Below are positions 6,334-48,237 of a DNA stretch of 48,575 nt, piece after piece (position 1 is the stretch's first letter; each line of letters opens with the position of its first letter). The notes under the pieces are model-generated. The model was not told the DNA's origin. It did no database searches and worked only from the letters and a program-made list of their open reading frames with translations. Source of the stretch: a virus (lineage: Duplodnaviria > Heunggongvirae > Uroviricota > Caudoviricetes); the IMG/VR virus record IMGVR_UViG_2582581022_000007, positions 1-48,575 of that record; one strand, written 5' to 3'. The position numbers and the translations under genes are program-made.

Positions 6334-8004
6334 ATGGCGGAAACCGAAAAAGAGCGTCTGCTGAAGCAGCTCGCACAGCTGAAGAATGAGCGCACATCGT
6401 TCGAGTCGCACTGGCGTGACCTGAGCGACTTCATCAATCCGCGCGGCTCTCGCTTTCTGACGTCTGATGTAAACCGTGATGATCGTCGAAACACCAAGAT
6501 TGTTGATCCTACTGGCTCAATGGCTCAGCGCATTTTGTCCAGCGGCATGATGTCAGGCATCACCAGCCCGGCACGTCCATGGTTCAAACTGGCAACGCCA
6601 GACCCTGACATGATGGATTATGGTCCGGTTAAAGTCTGGCTGGAAGTCGTGCAGCGCCGCATGAACGAAGTGTTCAACAAGTCAAACCTGTATCAGTCAT
6701 TGCCTGTCATGTACGCCAGCCTTGGCACTTTCGGCACCGCCGCAATGGCTGTGCTCGAAGATGACCAGGACGTGATCCGCACAATGCCTTTCCCGATTGG
6801 CAGCTACTACCTGGCTAACAGCCCGCGCGGCAGCGTCGACACATCCTTCCGCCAGTTCTCCATGACTGTTCGTCAGCTTGTGCAGGAATTCGGTCTGGAT
6901 AACGTCAGCTCATCGGTGCAGGGGATGTGGCAAAACGGCACGTATGAAACGTGGATCGAGGTTAACCACTGCATTACTCCAAACGTTAACCGTGATACCG
7001 GGAAGATGGACAGCAAGAACAAGCCGTTCCGCTCTGTGTACTTCGAGAGTGGCGGCGATTCCGACAAGCTGCTGCGTGAGTCCGGCTTCGATGAATTCCC
7101 GATCCTGGCGCCGCGCTGGGAAGTTAACGGCGAAGACGTTTACGCATCTTCCTGCCCTGGCATGCTGGCACTCGGTCAGGTGAAAGCCCTTCAGGTTGAG
7201 CAGAAGCGTAAAGCTCAGCTGATCGATAAGGCTACTAACCCGCCGATGGTCGCACCTACCTCGCTAAAAACACAGCGTGTTTCCCTGCTGCCTGGTGATG
7301 TGACGTACCTCGACGTGTTGAACGGTCAGGACGGTTTCAAACCTGCATACCTGGTAAACCCGAATACTGCAGATCTGCTGGCTGATATTCAGGATACCCG
7401 CCAGACCATCAACAGCGCCTACTTCGTCGACCTCTTCATGATGCTGCAAAACATCAACACCCGCTCTATGCCGGTGGAAGCAGTGATCGAGATGAAGGAA
7501 GAGAAACTTCTGATGCTTGGCCCGGTGCTGGAGCGCCTGAACGACGAAGCACTTAATCCGCTTATTGACCGCGTTTTCTCCATCATGGCGCGCAAGAACA
7601 TGCTTCCTCCACCGCCGGACGTTATGCAGGGTATGCCGCTGCGTATCGAATACATCTCCGTTATGGCGCAGGCTCAGAAATCTATCGGACTCACCAGCCT
7701 TTCGCAGACCGTTGGCTTCATTGGCCAACTCGCACAGCTCAAACCTGAAGCGCTCGACAAGCTCGACGTTGATCAGGCTATCGACGCGTTCTCCGAAATG
7801 TCCGGCGTATCGCCAACCGTCATCATTCCGCAGGAGCAGGTTCAGGGCATTCGTGAAGAGCGCGCCAAACAGGCACAAGCCGCACAGGCAATGGCAATGG
7901 GGCAGGCCGTAGCGCAGGGAGCCAAGACTCTCAGCGAGACGCAAACCACTGACCCGAGCGCATTAACCGCTATCGCTAATGCAGCAGGAGCACCGCAGCA
8001 ATGA
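6334..8004 (+). CDS. portal (head-to-tail connector) protein, T7-like
   Basis: 556 aa directly after terminase; Q/A-rich C-terminal tail (AKQAQAAQAMAMGQAVAQGAK) like podovirus connector proteins. Confidence 0.75.
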   Translation: MAETEKERLLKQLAQLKNERTSFESHWRDLSDFINPRGSRFLTSDVNRDDRRNTKIVDPTGSMAQRILSSGMMSGITSPARPWFKLATPDPDMMDYGPVKVWLEVVQRRMNEVFNKSNLYQSLPVMYASLGTFGTAAMAVLEDDQDVIRTMPFPIGSYYLANSPRGSVDTSFRQFSMTVRQLVQEFGLDNVSSSVQGMWQNGTYETWIEVNHCITPNVNRDTGKMDSKNKPFRSVYFESGGDSDKLLRESGFDEFPILAPRWEVNGEDVYASSCPGMLALGQVKALQVEQKRKAQLIDKATNPPMVAPTSLKTQRVSLLPGDVTYLDVLNGQDGFKPAYLVNPNTADLLADIQDTRQTINSAYFVDLFMMLQNINTRSMPVEAVIEMKEEKLLMLGPVLERLNDEALNPLIDRVFSIMARKNMLPPPPDVMQGMPLRIEYISVMAQAQKSIGLTSLSQTVGFIGQLAQLKPEALDKLDVDQAIDAFSEMSGVSPTVIIPQEQVQGIREERAKQAQAAQAMAMGQAVAQGAKTLSETQTTDPSALTAIANAAGAPQQ

Positions 8005-8300
8005 CGGATATCGATGACGAAGCCCGCAAAGCAGAGCTTGACGCTAAACAGCAACTTCTGGCGCAGCGCGACATTGACGACATTCAGTTTGTCATGGGTA
8101 GCGAGCAGGGCCGCCGCGTGATCTGGTCACTGCTTGAGAAAGGTCAGGTGTTCGGTGCTTGCTTCAACGTAGATCCACACATCACAGCATTCAACGAAGG
8201 GCAGCGCAACCTGGCTCTGGTTCTTTTTCAGCGCGTCATGGCGCACTGCCCCGATCAGTATCTGAAGATGGCCGCAGAGGCCGGAGAGGACAATTTATGA
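8001..8300 (+). CDS. hypothetical head-assembly protein
   Basis: ATGA overlap with portal stop; in structural operon. Confidence 0.5.
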   Translation: MTDIDDEARKAELDAKQQLLAQRDIDDIQFVMGSEQGRRVIWSLLEKGQVFGACFNVDPHITAFNEGQRNLALVLFQRVMAHCPDQYLKMAAEAGEDNL

Positions 8301-29880: not shown

Positions 29881-31071
29881 ATGTTGACTGACACCAGGCT
29901 GCGTCACCTTAAGCCGAAGGAGAAACTCTATAAAGTTAATGACCGTGATGGTCTGTATGTTGCGGTCACTCCGGCTGGAACTATTTCATTTCGTTATAAC
30001 TATTCAATAAACGGAAGACAGGAGACCGTTACTTTTGGCCGCTATGGTGTTGGAGGGATCACGCTTGCAGAAGCGCGTGAACGGCTCAATGAAGCTAAAA
30101 AAATGGTTGCCAGTGGAAGATCGCCAGCGAGGGAAAAAGCTAGAGATAAAGCTCGTATCAAAGATGCGGAGACTTTTGGTGCATGGGCTGAGAAATGGTT
30201 ACGCGGTTATCAAATGGCTGAATCGACGCGTGATATGCGGCGTTCGGTATATCAAAGGGAGTTGAAGTCAAAATTTGCGCAGCAGAAATTGACCGAGATT
30301 ACACATGAAGACTTACGCGCATTAACCGATAACATTGTCGAGAGAGGGGCACCGGCGACAGCTGTGCACGCCAGAGAGATTGTATTGCAAGTCTATCGCT
30401 GGGCTATTGAGCGCGGTCAGAAGGTTGAGAATCCCGCTGATCTGGTACGGCCTGCAAGCATAGCGAAATTTGAGCCTCGTGACAGGGCATTGACGCCAGT
30501 TGAAATTGGTCTGATGTATCGGTACATGGAACGGGTAGGAACGACGCCATCAATCAGAGCAGCGGTTAAACTTTTGCTGTTAACGATGGTACGTAAAAGT
30601 GAGCTTACTAACGCAACCTGGAACGAGATCAATTTTAGTGAGGCATTATGGACGATACCAAAGGAGAGGATGAAACGACGTAATCCACATTTGGTTTTTC
30701 TTTCCAGACAGGCAATGGATATTATGATTGCTCTCAAAACCTTTGCCGGTAGCTCTGATTTTATCCTTCCTTCGCGGTACGATTCCGATGCGCCAATGAG
30801 TAGCGCTACTTTAAACCGGGTTTTGACACTGACGTATCGTCTGGCTCAGAAAGAAGGGGACTTGTTACCTAAGTTTGGTCCCCATGACTTACGGCGTACT
30901 GCCAGCACCTTGCTACATGAGGCCGGGTACAATACTGACTGGATTGAGAAGTGCCTTGCCCATGAACAAAAGGGGGTACGAGCTGTTTATAACAAGGCTG
31001 AATATCGTGAGCAGAGGGCCGAGATGCTACAAGATTGGGCGAATATGATTGATGAATGGACTAGTAAGTAG
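29881..31071 (+). CDS. int: tyrosine recombinase/integrase, P4-type
   Basis: N-terminal arm-binding-like region (RLRHLKPKEKLYKVNDRDGLYVAV); C-terminal catalytic signature HDLRRTASTLLHEAGY...CLAHEQKGVRAVYNKAEY. Confidence 0.9.
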   Translation: MLTDTRLRHLKPKEKLYKVNDRDGLYVAVTPAGTISFRYNYSINGRQETVTFGRYGVGGITLAEARERLNEAKKMVASGRSPAREKARDKARIKDAETFGAWAEKWLRGYQMAESTRDMRRSVYQRELKSKFAQQKLTEITHEDLRALTDNIVERGAPATAVHAREIVLQVYRWAIERGQKVENPADLVRPASIAKFEPRDRALTPVEIGLMYRYMERVGTTPSIRAAVKLLLLTMVRKSELTNATWNEINFSEALWTIPKERMKRRNPHLVFLSRQAMDIMIALKTFAGSSDFILPSRYDSDAPMSSATLNRVLTLTYRLAQKEGDLLPKFGPHDLRRTASTLLHEAGYNTDWIEKCLAHEQKGVRAVYNKAEYREQRAEMLQDWANMIDEWTSK

Positions 31072-31125: not shown

Positions 31126-31142
31126 ATTTTAGCCGCTAAAAT
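31126..31142. promoter_or_regulatory. 17-bp perfect palindrome ATTTTAGCCGCTAAAAT (KorB operator-like), copy 1
   Basis: Matches the TTTAGC(C/G)GCTAAA IncP KorB operator consensus as I recall it; ~55 bp upstream of gene 31195. Confidence 0.5.
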
Positions 31143-31961: not shown

Positions 31962-31978
31962 ATTTTAGCTGCTAAAAG
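31962..31978. promoter_or_regulatory. KorB operator-like palindrome, copy 2 (ATTTTAGCTGCTAAAAG)
   Basis: One central and one terminal mismatch; flanking ~15 bp also resemble copy 1. Confidence 0.4.
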
Positions 31979-35564: not shown

Positions 35565-35581
35565 ATTTTAGCCGCTAAAAT
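35565..35581. promoter_or_regulatory. KorB operator-like perfect palindrome ATTTTAGCCGCTAAAAT, copy 3
   Basis: Identical 17-mer to copy 1; ~400 bp upstream of mobC-like gene. Confidence 0.5.
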
Positions 35582-35970
35582 CTGCAATGCACATGCTTTG
35601 ACAATGTAAGTAAAAAAGTGCATGAGAAAATAAAATATTTCTTACAATATATCGAAACATAAATACAGTTGGTGGACGCCCATTTATAACTACTAAAGGT
35701 CATTTTCAAAAGGGAGAAATATAGTTTCCTTGCAAGAAACACATTTGCTGCAGATCTTTACCCGAGTAATCCTATATTAATACGCTAAGAAAACACATCC
35801 TGTACACTGAAATACACATTGATGTGCACAGATATACTACGGCAACAGGAGGGCAGGACATGTAAAGTAGGCCCACCGCTACGGTGTTCCAACTTTACCA
35901 CTCCCTATTCGCCGCATCGCGGCTCAAGGGCGTCCTGCTCTGCCAGGCTACCGCCTGTATGGAGAGCTAT

Positions 35971-36324
35971 ATGAAAGTTACTCAGACTAGAAAAAATAGT
36001 ACGCCAATAAAAGTTTATTGTTTACCCGAAGAAAAAATTCTCATCCAAGAAAATGCAGAAGCATCTGGATTAAGTGTTGCCTGTTTTGTTCGTAGAGTTG
36101 CAATGGGTTATCAGGTTGATTCTATCGTAGATATAAAACAGGTTAATGAACTTAGCCGAGTAAACGCTGATCTTGGAAGACTTGGCGGATTACTTAAATT
36201 ATGGCTCGCAAATGATCCTCGAACAGTTGATTTTTCACCCACCCTGATAAGAACCTTGCTTGCGAAAATAGAATCAACTCGGCAAGAACTAAGGAACATT
36301 ATGGATAAAATCTTGGATAAATAA
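35971..36324 (+). CDS. MobC-like ribbon-helix-helix mobilisation accessory protein (putative)
   Basis: 117 aa from ATG 35971 (GGAGAG RBS); IKVYCLPEEKILIQENAEASGLSVACFVRRVAMG resembles relaxosome RHH proteins. Confidence 0.45.
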   Translation: MKVTQTRKNSTPIKVYCLPEEKILIQENAEASGLSVACFVRRVAMGYQVDSIVDIKQVNELSRVNADLGRLGGLLKLWLANDPRTVDFSPTLIRTLLAKIESTRQELRNIMDKILDK

Positions 36325-36405
36325 ATGTGTGGTTTCCTATATACCTGCGTCTGTTAAAAGACAGTGTGTTAAATATTACTGAACTGATGAAAAAGAGGTG
36401 AGCAA

Positions 36406-37200
36406 ATGAATTTAATGTTCCGAGTGGTTTCATTACAAAGAGGGATTTTAGCCGCTAAAAAAGCTTTAATAGTTCCTTTCGTGGCGTCCGTCATGGCATT
36501 ACCGGTTAAGGCCGGAATTCCCGTTATTGATGGCACTAATGTGGTTCAGACCACAATCAGCGCAGTTAACAACGTTCAGGCTGTGACTAAACAGATCCAG
36601 CAGTACCAGACGCAGCTGCAGCAGTATGAAAACATGCTCAAAAATACCGTCGCACCTGCGGCCTATATCTGGGATCAGGCCAATTCAACCATCAACAAAT
36701 TGTTGCAGGCGCAGGACACTCTTAATTACTACAAAAATCAGGCCGGGAGTCTTGATTCATATCTGAAACGTTATCAGGACGTGAATTACTACCGCTCATC
36801 ACCGTGCTTTAACAGTAATGTTGAATGTACTGCAGATGAAATCAGCGCACTGCGTAAAGCAGAACAGAACAGCTCTGAGGCGCGTAAAAAGGCCAATGAC
36901 GCCGTTTTTAAGGCTCTTGATGAACAGCAAGAAACACTGCAAAGCGATGCTGATAACCTGGCAGATTTGCAAACTCAGGCAACCGGCGCACAAGGGCAAA
37001 TGGAAGCTATTCAGGCCGCTAACCAGCTTGCAAGTGCTCAAACGAACCAGCTGCTGCAAATCCGCTCGCTCCTGGTAGCCCAGCAAAACGCTGCAGCAAC
37101 ACTGGCACAGGCTCAGGCAGATAAAGAATCACAACAGATAGCCGCTGATGAAAAAGCGTTAGCTGGAGAGAATACACCAAGCCCGAAGCGAATTTGGTGA
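36406..37200 (+). CDS. trbJ: TrbJ/VirB5-like type IV secretion protein
   Basis: Signal peptide, Q-rich coiled-coil (QIQQYQTQLQQYENMLKNT), ~260 aa, followed by small lipoprotein and TrbL-like gene as in IncP trbJ-trbK-trbL. Confidence 0.6.
   Translation: MNLMFRVVSLQRGILAAKKALIVPFVASVMALPVKAGIPVIDGTNVVQTTISAVNNVQAVTKQIQQYQTQLQQYENMLKNTVAPAAYIWDQANSTINKLLQAQDTLNYYKNQAGSLDSYLKRYQDVNYYRSSPCFNSNVECTADEISALRKAEQNSSEARKKANDAVFKALDEQQETLQSDADNLADLQTQATGAQGQMEAIQAANQLASAQTNQLLQIRSLLVAQQNAAATLAQAQADKESQQIAADEKALAGENTPSPKRIW
36445..36461. promoter_or_regulatory. KorB operator-like palindrome, copy 4 (ATTTTAGCCGCTAAAAA), inside trbJ 5' end
   Basis: 16/17 palindrome; encodes ILAAK within the putative signal peptide. 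Confidence 0.4.
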
Positions 37201-37211
37201 GGAAACGCAGA

Positions 37212-37385
37212 ATGAAAGATAATCTTTTGATTGTATTTATTCTGATCAGTTTATTGGCCATATGTTCTTGCGATAAAAATGATAAAGATTGTTTATCGAC
37301 GCCAGATAATAAATTTGATGAAAATAAATACGATAAATGTGCTCTACGGAGTAATAATAAACCAAGCCCTAAACGAGAATGGTAA
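37212..37385 (+). CDS. trbK: small lipoprotein, TrbK-like (entry exclusion) by position
   Basis: MKDNLLIVFILISLLAICSC signal/lipobox-like N-terminus, 57 aa, between trbJ-like and trbL-like genes. Confidence 0.45.
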   Translation: MKDNLLIVFILISLLAICSCDKNDKDCLSTPDNKFDENKYDKCALRSNNKPSPKREW

Positions 37386-38779
37386 TCATGAAAATAGCAA
37401 GTAAGCTCACCTTTCTAGGTATCATAATTTTCTTTTCTATAAATGCCTATGCTGGTCAATTAGATAGTAGCGGGCTACTTGATTCTTTATTAGATAAGTT
37501 TCAACAAGTAGCCAGTACATGGACAACAGTAATTGCTGACTATGCAAATTGGCTCTTCTGGGGGCTGGTATTAATAAGTATGGTTTGGACATTTGGTATG
37601 ATGGCAATGCAAGGAGAAGGGTTGACAGGCGTACTTGCTGAAATAGTTCGCTTTTTTGCCGTCATTGGTTTTTTTTATTATCTTTTAATCAACGGCCCAT
37701 CCATATCGCAATCCATAATTAATTCAATGAGGCAACTTGCAGCAAACGCTTTAGGAATAAGTACTGGTATTTCGCCCTCAAGCATAGTTGATATGGCGTT
37801 TGCGATATTAACAAAGGTCAGTTCAGCCGCATCAATTTGGTCGCCAATGATATCCACCATTATGATAACAGTAGCGATAATCGTTTTGGTAGTGATGTCC
37901 CTTATAGCGATAAATATGCTAATCATGTTGGTTTCTGCATGGGTGTTATGTTATGCAGGAGTTATATTGCTTGGATTTAGTGGTTCGAAATGGACCTCTG
38001 ATATAGCAATTAATTACTTACGAACTGTTTTATCGATTGGCATTCAATTATTCACGATGACATTAATTATTGGGATTGGACAATCATTTATAGATCAATA
38101 TTTTTCTCTTATTAAAGATGATGTTCCTGATCTTAATAGTCTTATCGTTTTGCTTCTGGCGTCAATTATCCTGTTAGTATTAACGAATAAGCTACCACTG
38201 TTGTTATCAGGTGTTGTAGGAGGAGCTTCTTTACAAGGGATTGGTGGATTTGGGGCGGGTATGATTACTGGCGCTGCCGCTACTGCCATCAGCGGTGCTG
38301 GAGCAATTGCAATGGGGGCATCAGCTCAAGTCAGCGGCGGAGCCTCTGCATTAAAGGCAGCGTTCGAGTCTGCGCAAGCTGCCATGGCCGAGGAATCTGG
38401 TTCAGGTGGTGGAGGCGGTTCCGGTGGAGGATTTGGCGTCGGGGAAGATACCGGTTCTGTAGATACTTCTGGAGGCCAACCCTCAGGCAGTTCCGGTGGT
38501 TCGTCAGCATGGAGCAGTTCAGTTAGCTCCAGCGGAGGAAGTCAGGGGTTTGCTTCATTCTCACGAGCTGGCCGCATGGCAAGCCATATGGGAAGCATCA
38601 TGGCCAACGGAGCTGCTGAGTACCAGAAAATGAAGCGAAGTAGCAATTCTTCTCGTGTCCAACAAACTATTGGAGGGGAGTTGGCGACTCAGATACGTAA
38701 GCAGACAGCTACTCATCGGGATAACCGCGAACATGATGATTTTGCCGATGATAGCTTATCGGGTAATAATAAATCTTGA
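37379..38779 (+). CDS. trbL: TrbL/VirB6-like polytopic membrane protein
   Basis: 466 aa, many transmembrane segments, Gly/Ser-rich C-terminal tail (SGSGGGGGSGGGFGVGEDTGS). Confidence 0.65.
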   Translation: MVIMKIASKLTFLGIIIFFSINAYAGQLDSSGLLDSLLDKFQQVASTWTTVIADYANWLFWGLVLISMVWTFGMMAMQGEGLTGVLAEIVRFFAVIGFFYYLLINGPSISQSIINSMRQLAANALGISTGISPSSIVDMAFAILTKVSSAASIWSPMISTIMITVAIIVLVVMSLIAINMLIMLVSAWVLCYAGVILLGFSGSKWTSDIAINYLRTVLSIGIQLFTMTLIIGIGQSFIDQYFSLIKDDVPDLNSLIVLLLASIILLVLTNKLPLLLSGVVGGASLQGIGGFGAGMITGAAATAISGAGAIAMGASAQVSGGASALKAAFESAQAAMAEESGSGGGGGSGGGFGVGEDTGSVDTSGGQPSGSSGGSSAWSSSVSSSGGSQGFASFSRAGRMASHMGSIMANGAAEYQKMKRSSNSSRVQQTIGGELATQIRKQTATHRDNREHDDFADDSLSGNNKS

Positions 38780-38860
38780 ATCATGTGCGTCAGTTAACGA
38801 GGTAGCGTGAGCTGACGCTTTCACTGTGCGAACTTTACTCCTGCAATTCAAAGGAAAAAC

Positions 38861-39325
38861 ATGTCCAGGACTCCCTATACACGGTTACGTATTGAGGGCT
38901 TCCGCAAAGCAGAGGCTTCCCTGAGACTTGAAGGAATGGACCCCAGTGGTACGCCACTGTACGAGTCCATTAAGGCACGTATTATTTCAGGTGAACTGAC
39001 GTATGAGCAGGGGCGTTCAGAGATTCTTACATACTACACAAAAGCAGATACTGACGGGCCTGTGACAGTGGGAGAGATGCTGGTAGAGGAATTTTTAAAA
39101 CCGCTGAACATGTCTCATGATGAACTGGCGGAAGCTATGGGTATCTGCAAGCAGTATATTGACGATATTATCTGCGGTTTGCGTCGTCTTACGGATGATG
39201 AGGCTCGCGTTCTTGCTGTCATATTTGGTACTGATGAGGACTTTTGGAGTAACCTTCAAAAGTTGCAAGATTGCAAGGAAAACCAAGTAAGTAGCCTTCG
39301 TCCACTTCGTGTTAGACCATGCTAG
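38861..39325 (+). CDS. HigA-like XRE-family HTH protein with N-terminal VbhA/FicA-like SxxxEG motif region
   Basis: C-terminal VGEMLVEEFLKPLNMSHDELAEAMGICKQYIDDIICGLRRLTDDEARVLAVIFGTDEDFWSNLQ matches HigA antitoxin HTH pattern; N-terminal ASLRLEGMDPSG has the (S/T)xxxE(G/N) motif. Confidence 0.55.
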   Translation: MSRTPYTRLRIEGFRKAEASLRLEGMDPSGTPLYESIKARIISGELTYEQGRSEILTYYTKADTDGPVTVGEMLVEEFLKPLNMSHDELAEAMGICKQYIDDIICGLRRLTDDEARVLAVIFGTDEDFWSNLQKLQDCKENQVSSLRPLRVRPC

Positions 39326-43701: not shown

Positions 43702-43856
43702 AAGCCACCTTGGCCACCTATTAGAGCGGGTGGCTAAATTTAGTGTTTCACTACAAATAGCATAAAAGGATGCAAAAATTCGGCGAATTTATTCCACGTG
43801 TTTTTTTAAATTCAATGTATGTTAAAATTGTGTCTATTTTATATCAGGATTGTCAA

Positions 43857-44744
43857 ATGAACTCAATTGTTACAGCTAAGGCATTGTCAGCAAGGAAAAA
43901 GTTTGCAGGCCGTCAATGGTTCTACGATTTTAGAGAACTAACTCAGCGTATTGATGAACAAAATGCCCAAAAAATTGCAGATAGCCTTTCCGTTCGATAT
44001 TCAAAACTAACAAAATTTTGGGATAAGGAAAAGAATTCAGAATGGATGTGCAGAATTTATTTATCGGCAAAAATGGTGATGAACGCCACAATACAGATTA
44101 ACTCCATGGAGTTTGCAAAAGAACGCAATATCCGTATCACAACTCCTTATTTAACATATTATTCCCTCCTTTCACTTCTTCGAGGAATCGTCTACACATT
44201 ACCAGAAGTGGAATGGGAGAATGGAAAGCTTATTGAGATATCGCATCACAAAGCTATAAATTTGGCATTCGACCATCTTTCGGCATTTAATAAGGACTTA
44301 TCTGAAGAGTTTAAAAATATCACGCTCACAGCCAAGGCATATCGTGAATTAATTTCGTATCGCTCCCCAACGTCGGGTGACTCTATAATTGAATCAATAA
44401 GCATCGAAGCGATTGCCACATTGCTAGCTGAGGTGGCACAATTTAACTCTGAAATTTTGGAGTCATCCATTATTAAGAAAGCAGATGGCGCTTCGTTTGA
44501 GTTTCTTAGTAAGTATATAAAAGAGTTATCTGGCATTACTATCGAAGGTATCAATTTCTTCGATCAAGAAGATGCTTATAGGTTAAACTATCTTCGCCGA
44601 AAATACCCTCTACCTCCAAATGTTCTTCATGTCATGACGGAAGGACATGTAGAGGATTTTTTTGGGGCATGGCTACCTAGTGAAGAAATTGAAGGTGCTT
44701 TTGACCCAGATGAAAATTGGGGAGTTATTTTTGATATCCCATAG
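43857..44744 (+). CDS. hypothetical protein (orphan gene between two defence loci)
   Basis: 295 aa from ATG 43857 (AGGA RBS); follows hairpin after previous operon; no motifs I can assign. Confidence 0.4.
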   Translation: MNSIVTAKALSARKKFAGRQWFYDFRELTQRIDEQNAQKIADSLSVRYSKLTKFWDKEKNSEWMCRIYLSAKMVMNATIQINSMEFAKERNIRITTPYLTYYSLLSLLRGIVYTLPEVEWENGKLIEISHHKAINLAFDHLSAFNKDLSEEFKNITLTAKAYRELISYRSPTSGDSIIESISIEAIATLLAEVAQFNSEILESSIIKKADGASFEFLSKYIKELSGITIEGINFFDQEDAYRLNYLRRKYPLPPNVLHVMTEGHVEDFFGAWLPSEEIEGAFDPDENWGVIFDIP

Positions 44745-45064: not shown

Positions 45065-45916
45065 CTATGGGTAAATTAAATTGTGCTTAGTATATAAGAA
45101 CTGGACTACACCTTGGGAGTTTAAAATTCCATGAATAAAGATTGAGAACCAGTTGTTTGGTGTGCTGTACGACTGATCATATCTATTTAATGCATCATTC
45201 AAATATCTCGAAAAGTCAGCAATGGTTGGAGTATTGGCTAATGGTAACGTTTGAATTTTTAAGCTTGGGTTTTGTGTCGTTGTATCCCATTCACCTTCTA
45301 GCCAATTAATAATTCCTGATGGGAGAACAACTTTCTCCGTGTGGTATTTTATGCTGTCTATTTCTAAGTGCTGTGGTAAAACATAAGCTATTTCAATTTT
45401 AGCTTTTGGAAATTGAGGGTCTTGAGTAATGTTACACGACAAAAGCCTCTGATTAAGAAAAACGTCATAATAAGGATGTAGTATCCTTTTATTTCCATCC
45501 GTTAAATTCGTTTTTCGTTTGCTGTTGCAATCACAAGCTGGAACTAAATTTTTTGAATACACAGAAAAGCAAGGGTAGTCATCTTTAGGAAACAGGTGAT
45601 CAAGGGTTCCTGTTTTTAATGAACCGCACATTGGGCAAACGTTTGGTGAAGATGCTCTTAAATCATCAATGAACTTTAAGTCAGTTGGTGGTGAAGCGTA
45701 GTGCTTCTTCAATGCTATTGATAAATCATTGGTAATGTTGACGTTCGCAACTGATAGTGCGTTACCATTATTAGCGTCATAGTCTTGGTATCCATTTAAA
45801 ATGATCTGTAACTCATTGTGTAAATGCGGATAACTTGTTCTATGAAGCCTGTCTCTTTGAGACGTTGTCGTTATTTTCTCAATATCATTTACCGCAGGTA
45901 AAGGAAGCTTTTTCAC
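45065..45916 (-). CDS. HNH endonuclease (PtuB-like)
   Basis: CPMCGS...TLDHLFPK...PACDCNSKR HNH/zinc-finger motifs; GTG start 2 nt after upstream ATPase stop with GGAGGA RBS. Confidence 0.75.
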   Translation of the reverse strand: MKKLPLPAVNDIEKITTTSQRDRLHRTSYPHLHNELQIILNGYQDYDANNGNALSVANVNITNDLSIALKKHYASPPTDLKFIDDLRASSPNVCPMCGSLKTGTLDHLFPKDDYPCFSVYSKNLVPACDCNSKRKTNLTDGNKRILHPYYDVFLNQRLLSCNITQDPQFPKAKIEIAYVLPQHLEIDSIKYHTEKVVLPSGIINWLEGEWDTTTQNPSLKIQTLPLANTPTIADFSRYLNDALNRYDQSYSTPNNWFSIFIHGILNSQGVVQFLYTKHNLIYP

Positions 45917-45918
45917 AA

Positions 45919-47385
45919 TTAATCCTCCATCATGCGTTTTAATCGCATTAAGGCTGATAGCGAAATTTCATTGCCTAGCTGTTCTTCTACGTCAGAAAAG
46001 CTCTTGCCTTTCACTCTATCGTAGAGTTTTTCTGAAAGTCTTATTTCAGTATCTTCCTGAAAGATAAACTGTGAAATAGAATCTACAGTTGCTCCAAATG
46101 TCGGTAACCTCGGTTTATCAGTTACGAGCCTGTGATCTGATATTGAGAGAACAGCTACCTGTTCATTTGATACTTCACGGACAAAATACGCCGAATGAGT
46201 TGCTATAAGTGCCTGTGAGCCTGTTTTTTCTAATAGGAAGTCTAGTAGTCCTATAAAATCAACAATCATGTTAGGATGCATGTGCGTTTCAGGTTCATCC
46301 ATCAATACAAACGTACCGTTTTCAATGAACAAGCAACTCAGTAAAGCAACCTTAAAGAAGGTTAACTGCCCGCTACTAAGCGGGTAGAGTCCGTCGCCTC
46401 TTTTTAATTTAGGGTCTAGGTTGTGCTCAATACTAGCCCAACGCATCAAAGAATCTTGCTCTCCGTTTCCTTGTAAAAAACTCCATAGATTGATTGTTCG
46501 TTCATTTTTTAACTGTAAAAAGATATTTCTAGGGTCTAATCCTGCTTGGTAAAGTGAATCCAAAAAAAGGTTTTTTCGAGTATTTTCACCAATCTCATCT
46601 GCACTTCTCGCTAATTGTACGAGGCAATCACCAATATTATGTGTCCCTTTTCGAGTCAGATTTAACCGTCTATAGTAAAGCTTCTGTGTCGCTCTTCTTT
46701 CAGGGGGAAACGTGTTTGAGGTTTCACCAGGTGTCGCTATTGCGATAATACGATTGATTAGAGGTCGTTTACCGTCATCGTCAACCAGTGACAACCCTTT
46801 ATCTTTATATTGCAGTGCCCCTCGGCAAAATGCTTTAAGCGACTCGCTTTTACCAACACCATTTTTACCTATCAACACAAAAATTCGCTTCGGTATGATA
46901 CTTTGGTGGTTGTATTTTAATGACAGTTGATGAAGCTCTTCAAAACCATCTAACTGGAACTTAAGTTCTAACGAGTTGGATATAGCTACATCACTTTTTA
47001 GCTCTTCTCCAATAATAATACTGTTAGCATTGTGATAAGCGAAGAACGGCTCGGAGTTACGCATGAAACCAAGTTTAAATACTTCAGTATCAATGGCTTT
47101 TCTTACCCATTTTTCATCAGTGTCTTTATATTGAGAAAGATCATTTACTGTACGTAAGAATAGTTCGGCTCCTTCGCGGCCAAACCCGTCGTAAAGGTCT
47201 CGGTAGCTTTGCATGTCAGGTAACAAAGTAAAAAATGGAGGAAGGTCCTCTGAATAAACAACCTCTTTATCAGCCTTTTTTAGGTACTCCCATAGCGTTT
47301 CTTTTTTTTCATAAAAGAGAAGCTCTTCCTCTTTGTTTTCTATGTTATCTGGAGCCATAAAGCCAATTAACATTGAGCCTTCCAT
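45919..47385 (-). CDS. ABC-type/AAA_21-like ATPase (PtuA-like) with ~170-aa N-terminal extension
   Basis: Walker A IGKNGVGKS at res ~173-180, signature LSSGQLTFFKVALL, Walker B FVLMDEPETHMHP, H-loop IATHSAYF. Confidence 0.75.
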   Translation of the reverse strand: MEGSMLIGFMAPDNIENKEEELLFYEKKETLWEYLKKADKEVVYSEDLPPFFTLLPDMQSYRDLYDGFGREGAELFLRTVNDLSQYKDTDEKWVRKAIDTEVFKLGFMRNSEPFFAYHNANSIIIGEELKSDVAISNSLELKFQLDGFEELHQLSLKYNHQSIIPKRIFVLIGKNGVGKSESLKAFCRGALQYKDKGLSLVDDDGKRPLINRIIAIATPGETSNTFPPERRATQKLYYRRLNLTRKGTHNIGDCLVQLARSADEIGENTRKNLFLDSLYQAGLDPRNIFLQLKNERTINLWSFLQGNGEQDSLMRWASIEHNLDPKLKRGDGLYPLSSGQLTFFKVALLSCLFIENGTFVLMDEPETHMHPNMIVDFIGLLDFLLEKTGSQALIATHSAYFVREVSNEQVAVLSISDHRLVTDKPRLPTFGATVDSISQFIFQEDTEIRLSEKLYDRVKGKSFSDVEEQLGNEISLSALMRLKRMMED

Positions 47386-47665: not shown

Positions 47666-48237
47666 TTAAGGGCGTTTCATTCTAATTCCATTAATTGGGA
47701 TGGTAATCCTCCCATTTTTAACCGCAATTAAACGTAGAAGTCTAGCGGCCATTAATGGTGGTTTTCCTCCATTGGCTTTGTGTGGCCGTTCATAATTGGA
47801 AAAACTAAAACCATTTAGTGGCATAGTCTTACACTTCTTCAAGTGTATCAAATAAATGTTTGCTGACCTAGCTGTACATGATCGTTTTGTTATGTAGTTC
47901 GATGTAGGCATTTTGCTGTGGTTTGCCAGGCTGAGTGTACTCAATACGGATCCCATGCATTTTCGACCATTTTGTAAACCCTTGGCTGATTAACTCAGGC
48001 CCATTGTCAAAGCGTATCGCTAGCAGTTTTGTTCGCCATTCGAGCAATTGATTTAGTGTTCTTATCACTTGCAGTGCCAGCAATGAGAACTCTGCTTTAA
48101 TCGGCAAACCTCGTTTGAAGTCGTCGATGACGTTGAAGAACTGATAGCTGCGTCCATCCGCTAGCAGGTCAGCGCTATGTAAAGTGTATAGAGATAAGTT
48201 GGAGGTACAAGGTGGATAGAATTACATCGGAACCAGC
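47666..48237 (-). pseudogene. IS3-family transposase (DDE integrase core) remnant, N-terminally truncated and frameshifted
   Basis: Two overlapping frames: ...FFNVIDDFKRGLPIKAEF...RFDNGPELISQ...QPGKPQQNAYIE and ...NYERPHKANGGKPPLMAARL; in-frame stop at 48238, no start. Confidence 0.65.

Follow-up and report, generated by a model that had tools for sequence, protein, structure and literature searches.

A fusion of VbhA/FicA-like and HigA-like domains at the cargo border of a PIME1-type island: a candidate antidote to the addiction toxins of an IncP helper plasmid

The stretch of viral-record DNA analyzed here (IMGVR_UViG_2582581022_000007, 48,575 nucleotides [nt], referred to in its whole length as the window) carries on its plus strand, at 38861-39325, an open reading frame (ORF) with an ATG start that encodes a protein of 154 amino acids (aa), just as the original prediction had described it. 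RefSeq labels the gene "HigA family addiction module antitoxin" and nothing more. Its product joins an N-terminal domain resembling the Fic antitoxins VbhA and FicA to a C-terminal helix-turn-helix (HTH) domain of the HigA type, and we see an about even chance that this protein acts in trans as a double antidote against the addiction toxins of the IncP plasmid that would serve as helper for the surrounding island. The gene is divided as follows:

38861..39325, plus strand: two-domain orphan antitoxin-like gene (VbhA/FicA-like plus HigA-like HTH), from the ORF list and domain matches
38873..39046, plus strand: domain of the three-helix Fic-antitoxin (VbhA/FicA) type, residues 5-62, from AlphaFold2 and 73% identity to the plasmid protein P0361
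38918..38935, plus strand: S20-L-R-L-E24-G25, fitting the Fic-inhibition motif [S/T]xxxE[G/N], at the C-terminal end of helix 1
39050..39286, plus strand: HigA-type HTH domain, residues 64-142, from TIGR02607 and from sequence and fold matches in the Protein Data Bank (PDB)
39287..39322, plus strand: C-terminal tail of low confidence (predicted local distance difference test [pLDDT] below 50 at residues 144-154; tail variants in the alignment)

The gene and its two domains

The HigA/XRE-type HTH that the original prediction placed in the C-terminal half is borne out by curated profiles, with 64.0 bits for NCBIfam TIGR02607 (HigA; cut-off 47.7) over residues 67-139 and 24.8 bits for Pfam HTH_3 (cut-off 23). 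Sequence relatives of this half in the PDB are YbaQ (E = 6.5e-11), VapI, GraA and several HigA proteins, and a Foldseek search with the AlphaFold2 model was headed by YbaQ, PaHigA, VapI and GraA, at target-normalised TM-scores of 0.7-0.84. The model of the whole protein has a mean pLDDT of 72.5, with C-terminal blocks at 80-92.

The SxxxEG motif claimed for the N-terminal part is likewise present, as S20-LRL-E24-G25 within ASLRLEG (residues 19-25). Rather than varying among homologues, which the original prediction had named as something that would speak against it, the motif is strongly conserved: alignments of 32 and of 36 homologues show S20 without exception and keep E24 and G25 at 90% or more, and the stretch F14-E35 is almost fixed. 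When the domain is modeled alone (mean pLDDT 77.5), AlphaFold2 predicts helices at residues 5-23, 32-43 and 48-65, the motif closing helix 1; this is the three-helix arrangement, with the motif at the end of helix 1, that has been described for VbhA and EcFicA, in which the [S/T]xxxE[G/N] motif was defined and located (PMC5033356). The top match of a Foldseek search against 350,542 PDB chains was BiaA (5nh2_B), an antitoxin bound to the BepA Fic domain, at a non-significant E value of 4 and TM-scores of 0.46-0.53; this model-based match would agree with the Fic-antitoxin assignment but is only a hint. What we regard as decisive for the identity of the N-terminal domain, as judged from sequence, is the genetic linkage of its 65-aa homologue P0361 to a VbhT-like Fic gene. 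P0361 is 73% identical to the window protein over residues 7-61 and ∼88% identical to its core, residues 13-55 (counted from the alignment).

Both halves of the gene are under purifying selection, with pairwise dN/dS values of 0.05-0.48 in the island gene. Against a plasmid-borne form of the same fusion, synonymous sites are saturated, whereas dN stays at 0.17 for the N-terminal and at 0.30-0.32 for the C-terminal half. Altogether, 253 homologues of the window protein were found across Enterobacterales. Length variants of 139-154 aa are seen in the alignment; most relatives have 144 aa, and the tail of the window copy, at 154 aa, exceeds theirs by 10 aa. By eye, the extra length looks like a 1-nt indel relative to Escherichia coli M8. 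DNA matches between islands stop at nucleotides 409-433 of the 465 in the gene; since homology between islands ends within its last ∼15 codons, the length variants follow, and since these islands carry different cargo beyond this point, the 3′ end of the gene (39270-39325) would be the left edge of a hotspot of cargo exchange.

The original prediction also held that no Fic or HigB-like ORF is adjacent, and that a small toxin ORF turning up nearby in a sensitive search would tell against it. A six-frame regular-expression search of the 48.6-kb window for the Fic motif gave no match, tblastn of the window with the IncP Fic, IncP HigB and E. coli M8 Fic proteins gave a best E value of 0.69, and a Pfam scan of the nine small ORFs flanking the gene found no toxin family. 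Where HigA would have HigB upstream, the neighbor is trbL, 81 nt away, and an imperfect inverted repeat lies in between:

38787..38818, plus strand: imperfect inverted repeat (hairpin) in the spacer that follows the trbL stop, which may be an operator, an attenuator or without function

This is the repeat of the original prediction, which does exist but lies four bases away from the position given there (38791-38822). Its 13-nt arms (38787-38799 and 38806-38818) are 85% complementary and flank a 6-nt loop. Folded as an RNA hairpin it reaches -17.5 kcal/mol (z = -1.48), which 17 of 200 shuffled sequences matched, so it is not statistically notable and no better than chance. Its outer 7 bp are identical in five islands, but as the whole spacer between trbL and the gene is 95% identical, this says little. 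A promoter scan upstream of the window gene yielded nothing significant.

Matching pairs on IncP plasmids and the island backbone

The gene is the last member of a conserved block, traJ-trbJ-trbK-trbL-gene, all on the same strand, of which the transfer genes form one module:

35884..38779, plus strand: traJ-trbJ-trbK-like-trbL transfer module (Pfam TrbL; RefSeq annotation in four E. coli islands)

The TrbJ protein of the window is ∼92% identical to its counterpart on about 80 plasmids, 45-75 kb in size, which, where inspected, are typed IncP (or rep_cluster_1368), MOBP and MPF_T and whose hosts are Escherichia, Klebsiella, Enterobacter (including E. kobei), Salmonella and Citrobacter. On ∼55-kb IncP plasmids the gene for P0361 directly follows korA-incC-korB and overlaps by 4 nt a gene for a 337-aa Fic+KfrB protein, which has the motif HPFREGNSR, carries HPFREGNSRTLR, and has VbhT (E = 2e-32) and EcFicT as its closest solved relatives. 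The same plasmids hold a higB-higA pair beside trfA (higB matching PF05015 at 86.8 bits). One copy of the fic::kfrB gene is that at 7119-8129 of NC_022650.1, and HigB of the IncP pair is recorded as WP_071443968.1. When the two plasmid antitoxins were aligned to the window by tblastn, VbhA fell on 38879-39043 and HigA on 39050-39286, a gap of two codons; by these alignments the window protein joins, head to tail, homologues of the two antitoxins that the IncP lineage carries. Complete homologous pairs (vbhA-fic::kfrB and higBA), as one would look for in an anti-addiction system, are thus found on a replicon that shares the hosts of the carrier.

The C-terminal domain is 54% identical over 79 aa to HigA of the IncP higBA pair. 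Among 1.8 billion representative proteins, and leaving fusion fragments aside, P0140 is the best HigA that stands alone, at 48% identity to the window domain; it is itself 61% identical to the IncP plasmid HigA and belongs to the same subfamily. By a count along the alignment, the domain agrees with the plasmid HigA at ∼75% of positions over residues 64-83 (the first helix segment) and at ∼36% over residues 84-111 (the helix-turn-helix segment), which could mean, as a weak inference, that a protein-binding surface has been kept while the DNA target has changed.

The two plasmid pairs go with the matching transfer genes: the 30 top TrbJ plasmids all recur in the lists of matches to VbhA, Fic-KfrB or HigA, and CP134900.1 carries intact Fic-KfrB and HigBA together. 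Among the plasmids of PLSDB, about 77 encode a VbhA that is 90% or more identical to P0361, and about 31 have an intact 337-aa Fic-KfrB. A 47-51-kb IncP sub-lineage has retained the KfrB part alone, with vbhA broken and the Fic part deleted, so the Fic toxin is being lost in part of the lineage. The order after korB in this lineage is vbhA, fic::kfrB and kfrC, and vbhA is preceded at ∼40 nt by a KorB operator (locus L007, 5760-7020; likewise L008-L010, L016 and L019); in IncP-1 plasmids the position after korB is that of kfrA. In E. coli LR-27, an IncP plasmid of the Fic-deleted form, 51 kb in size, resides together with a 3.9-kb plasmid that bears an orphan vbhA-like gene (the pair NZ_AP027508.1/NZ_AP027509.1), the only co-residence of a helper-type plasmid and an orphan antidote among the matches listed.

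Clustered at 50% identity, the two-domain architecture is essentially one small family, with two representatives at E ≤ 1e-30. Intact copies are spread over many genera and three replicon types that are unrelated. Apart from its island copies, the fusion is found directly downstream of mobQ on mobilizable plasmids of 6-9 kb that lack Lamassu or other defence genes and lack a toxin; these also encode a coupling protein and, in one of two inspected, an entry-exclusion protein. It is further found on a 3-kb plasmid. The VbhA-like domain alone (65-66 aa; "antitoxin VbhA family protein" at NCBI) is very common on plasmids of 2-6 kb, where this form without an HTH is the commoner one; it stands without a Fic gene on plasmids of 2-4 kb, among them 2.4-kb Rep_1 replicons that are too small to hold one. 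The distribution is therefore one of complete pairs on the conjugative plasmid and toxin-less antidotes on elements that cannot transfer themselves.

The island itself was located in 116 of 5,426 complete E. coli genomes, all 117 matching places being chromosomal, and a megablast of the locus against the plasmid collection gave no match. Four E. coli islands inserted between guaA and yfgI share one backbone, in the order integrase, hypothetical gene, luxR, HTH gene (alpA-like), repA, hypothetical gene, traJ, trbJ, small trbK-like gene, trbL and the homologue of the window gene; the window has the same order, guaA itself lying outside it. What follows the gene differs: Lamassu/ABC-3C in E. coli M8, a PIN-domain gene and a 1,365-aa protein in HS, a DEAD-box helicase with a SIR2/ATPase pair in EC416, and type I restriction-modification on the opposite strand with DUF262 genes in CD45. 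The junction with lmuA is common to 70 of the 116 genomes that match the junction probe. The operon downstream of the window gene is indeed Lamassu-like, as originally noted, with PADLOC matches to LmuA (78 bits), LmuC (67 bits) and LmuB (278 bits) and Pfam ABC-3C labels (CTD1, MComp1). Because the gene stays constant while the cargo changes, it is best described as the last backbone gene at the border of a cargo hotspot and not as a partner of Lamassu.

By its backbone, the window island belongs to the PIME1-type integrative mobilizable elements. PIME1, which is related to GIsul2, is excised, replicated and transferred with the help of an IncP plasmid (pB10 in the study concerned), has an inducer that derives from the helper, depresses amplification of its helper, and stores defence systems in its accessory region (bioRxiv 10.64898/2026.01.12.698999); that paper makes no mention of the gene described here, or of higA, toxins, antitoxins, Fic or KorB operators. 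Perfect IncP KorB operators (TTTAGCCGCTAAA) are present in the backbone at 31128-31140, 35567-35579 and 36447-36459, the first of them behind int, the second ahead of traJ and the third where trbJ starts, and a copy with one mismatch at 31964-31976. None of 100 shuffles reached this count, and the same sites are found in each of the four E. coli islands inspected. They may connect the island with the global regulator KorB of its helper, a link that could bear on the helper signal.

Proposed function and rival explanations

Since the IncP lineage that matches the transfer genes of the island carries exactly two corresponding pairs, vbhA-ficT::kfrB and higBA, neutralizing both toxins in trans would be the most likely function of the window protein. 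The N-terminal module of the VbhA/FicA type is predicted to bind the FicT::KfrB protein of the helper (class I Fic), with Glu24 plugging the ATP/active site, and ∼88% core identity to the plasmid VbhA makes cross-neutralization plausible. The C-terminal module of the HigA type would bind the HigB RNase toxin of the helper, DNA, or both. Standing at the end of the traJ-trbJKL block, the gene is probably expressed together with it. Cells that hold the island would survive loss of the helper, an anti-addiction benefit made relevant by the depression of helper amplification by the island, and recipients of the island without the helper (island-only transconjugants) would be protected too, especially if the Fic toxin crosses the mating channel, which VbhT has been shown to do. 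The use of orphan antitoxins as anti-addiction devices has been discussed, as has "addiction during transfer", VbhT traveling through the conjugative secretion system (PMC5675462). Of the roles offered by the original prediction, those of an orphan antitoxin and of an antidote to a toxin encoded elsewhere both gain from these comparisons: close relatives of both domains are antitoxins of complete pairs with no toxin in the window, and the vbhA-fic::kfrB and higB-higA pairs on the matching IncP lineage point to where such toxins might lie.

Several observations weigh against a double antidote of this kind. The N-terminal half scores 13.7-16.2 bits with Pfam VbhA (PF18495; gathering score 25.9) and 13.5 bits with Pfam YhfG (PF10832; gathering score 22.6), sub-threshold matches that recur across the homologue family, so that the profile searches envisaged in the original prediction favored HigA but left the Fic-antitoxin families below their cut-offs. 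P0361, which is truly Fic-linked, also misses the VbhA cut-off (19 bits); the low score of the window protein therefore says little, the threshold being set too high for this branch. Neither the N-terminal 66 aa nor a profile built from 11 sequences, when searched against PDB sequences, retrieved VbhA, EcFicA or BiaA. The specificity of antitoxins is often narrow, and neutralization of HigB by a domain 54% identical to the plasmid HigA (∼36% in the HTH segment) is uncertain. With most 47-51-kb members lacking Fic and ∼31 plasmids carrying it intact, the threat from the toxin would be patchy. The antitoxin domains (73% and 54%) are less similar to their plasmid counterparts than TrbJ is (92%), and therefore they were not simply acquired together with it in recent time. 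The E. coli genomes with the island and those with the IncP modules do not overlap among the matches listed. Finally, pB10 is not known to carry a Fic module, and the toxin would then not be needed for induction.

The same features may be read as those of a regulator, although we think this unlikely: the protein would mainly bind DNA and repress genes of the island (its own, those of the transfer block or those for excision and replication), while its VbhA-like part would serve as a receiver that, on binding FicT and/or HigB, changes DNA binding and so signals the presence of the helper. Type II antitoxins commonly use their toxin as co-repressor or de-repressor, and an intact HigA-type HTH under purifying selection, an inverted repeat just upstream of the gene, a backbone already tied to IncP regulation by three perfect KorB operators and an as yet unknown helper-derived inducer of PIME1-type elements would all suit such a role. 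The repeat, however, does not stand out statistically and an operator search gave none, pB10, which is not known to carry Fic, induces these elements, and the commoner form on small plasmids has no HTH, so that the N-terminal domain works without DNA binding. Much more remote is a role devoted to controlling transcription of the downstream Lamassu (ABC-3C) operon. Genes for HTH regulators are often found ahead of defence operons, and 189 nt separate the gene from lmuA, which follows it on the same strand; yet the gene adjoins four different cargos, one of them on the opposite strand, the lmuA junction occurs in only 70 of the 116 E. coli genomes, and the fusion is also found on plasmids without defence genes. 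The option of a regulator of the downstream operon, as the original prediction had worded it, does not fit a constant backbone gene whose neighboring cargo varies in content and orientation, nor a fusion present on plasmids that lack Lamassu. A component or regulator of Lamassu was rejected on the comparative data, there being no consistent co-occurrence with lmuA, lmuC and lmuB.

A toxin of the host chromosome or another resident element, either a Fic protein of the EcFicT/YhfG type or a Fic protein carried as island cargo, might also be the target, which would agree with the weak match of the N-terminal domain to YhfG (EcFicA) as well as to VbhA and with the Fic/DOC protein encoded ∼11 kb downstream in the E. 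coli M8 island. We hold this to be improbable, as the M8 Fic protein is missing from the window and three further islands, the chromosomal fic already has its own antitoxin (PMC5033356), and the closest relatives of both domains that belong to complete pairs sit on one plasmid lineage. Equally improbable in our view is a non-functional remnant of two pairs from an ancestral integrated IncP fragment, hitch-hiking with the backbone after its toxins were lost. The transfer genes are clearly derived from IncP, loss of a toxin with retention of its antitoxin is common, and frameshifted and truncated copies are known (e.g., P0123-P0134); but the dN/dS values of 0.05-0.48 in both halves, the synonymous saturation relative to the plasmid-borne fusion, the nearly invariant inhibitory motif, and the intact copies across many genera and three unrelated replicon types, with the exact in-frame fusion kept, are not what would be expected of a decaying gene.

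The candidate double antidote resembles several known systems and departs from each. With VbhA and FicA (EcFicA being YhfG) it shares a small helical domain of three predicted helices, as in VbhA, with [S/T]xxxE[G/N] ending helix 1, and its 73%-identical IncP homologue overlaps a VbhT-like Fic gene; unlike them, the domain is fused to an HTH, scores below the Pfam cut-offs and has no Fic gene adjoining it or anywhere within 48.6 kb, its inhibition of Fic being predicted. It is like the short HigA proteins of the GraA, PaHigA and YbaQ type in its profile score above the curated cut-off, its fold matches and its closest stand-alone relatives, HigA of IncP higBA pairs, and differs from them in lacking an upstream HigB, in having a putative second antitoxin as N-terminal extension, and in a recognition-helix region diverged from that of the plasmid HigA. 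As in known anti-addiction orphans (chromosomal ccd versus that of the F plasmid; four on pVbh), no toxin accompanies the gene and complete homologous pairs are found on a regularly met replicon; here, two unrelated antitoxin types are fused, are borne by a hitchhiker, and match both pairs of the presumed helper. The island agrees with PIME1 (GIsul2-related, at guaA) in backbone order followed by defence genes, in the guaA site of its E. coli relatives and in the presumed dependence on an IncP helper; the published description is silent on this gene, on toxins and antitoxins, and on KorB operators. In full-text searches of the literature, we found no description of a VbhA-HigA fusion and no precedent for a double orphan antidote. 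Orphan antitoxins, the anti-addiction idea, the island family and the HigA-family label in databases are already known; the VbhA-type domain in the fused protein, the fusion of two antitoxins, and the match to both pairs of the IncP lineage appear to be new.

Toxin-antitoxin pairs are the main way in which conjugative resistance plasmids enforce their own maintenance, and the IncP lineage concerned consists of conjugative plasmids of clinical and animal isolates. If the window protein is indeed a double antidote, matched antidotes on islands and small plasmids would weaken the addiction exerted by helpers and alter plasmid persistence in populations, the survival of island-only transconjugants would be explained, and two toxin classes would have in this protein a compact natural inhibitor, usable for plasmid curing. 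A concrete role is thereby proposed for a gene that about 2% of complete E. coli genomes contain and that is until now labelled "HigA family antitoxin" alone. As a more tentative and rather doubtful generalization, hitchhikers of several kinds (integrative mobilizable islands, MobQ plasmids and tiny rolling-circle plasmids) might routinely carry toxin-less copies of helper antitoxins, here fused into a double antidote that matches both IncP addiction modules, which would let the host shed the helper unharmed and would shield island-only recipients if FicT::KfrB is injected like VbhT.

Further features of the island and its relatives

On small plasmids, the vbhA-like gene is preceded, at a distance of ∼40-55 nt, by a perfect palindrome of 20 bp, as GTAAAGTAGGCCTACTTTAC and GTAAAGTTAGCTAACTTTAC (locus L002, 1761-1780, and locus L003, 555-574), the central bases differing between the two while the symmetry is kept. 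The island retains the right-hand half only (AACTTTAC, at about 38822-38829), and the IncP higBA promoter region contains no similar repeat. As it precedes fused and unfused genes alike, it is not assignable to the HTH domain.

In the cargo of the window, directly after lmuB, a 324-aa ORF on the plus strand (43770-44744) has no match in PADLOC, Pfam or NCBIfam, and a 96-aa ORF on the minus strand (47666-47956) has none in PADLOC, the only collection with which it was compared. Between them, at 45065-47385 on the minus strand, two genes of 283 and 488 aa, recorded as convergent, match B and A of PADLOC PDC-M01 (120 and 172 bits), a candidate pair that would be a second defence system of the island cargo. 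In the cargo of E. coli HS (locus L004, 12581-17848), the 1,365-aa protein that follows the PIN-domain protein is likewise labelled "HigA family addiction module antitoxin" by RefSeq and is unusually large for an HTH-containing protein. At the far end of the cargo of the E. coli M8 island (locus L001, 23015-24392), the gene for the Fic/DOC protein (motif HPFLDGNGR) is preceded by an overlapping hypothetical gene of 222 aa.

Upstream of the integrase (29881-31071), the region from ∼1 to 29500 is filled with co-directional ORFs on the plus strand (556, 328, 825, 873, 568, 848 and 903 aa among others) and resembles a phage structural module, so that the island in this record seems to abut a prophage and not guaA directly.

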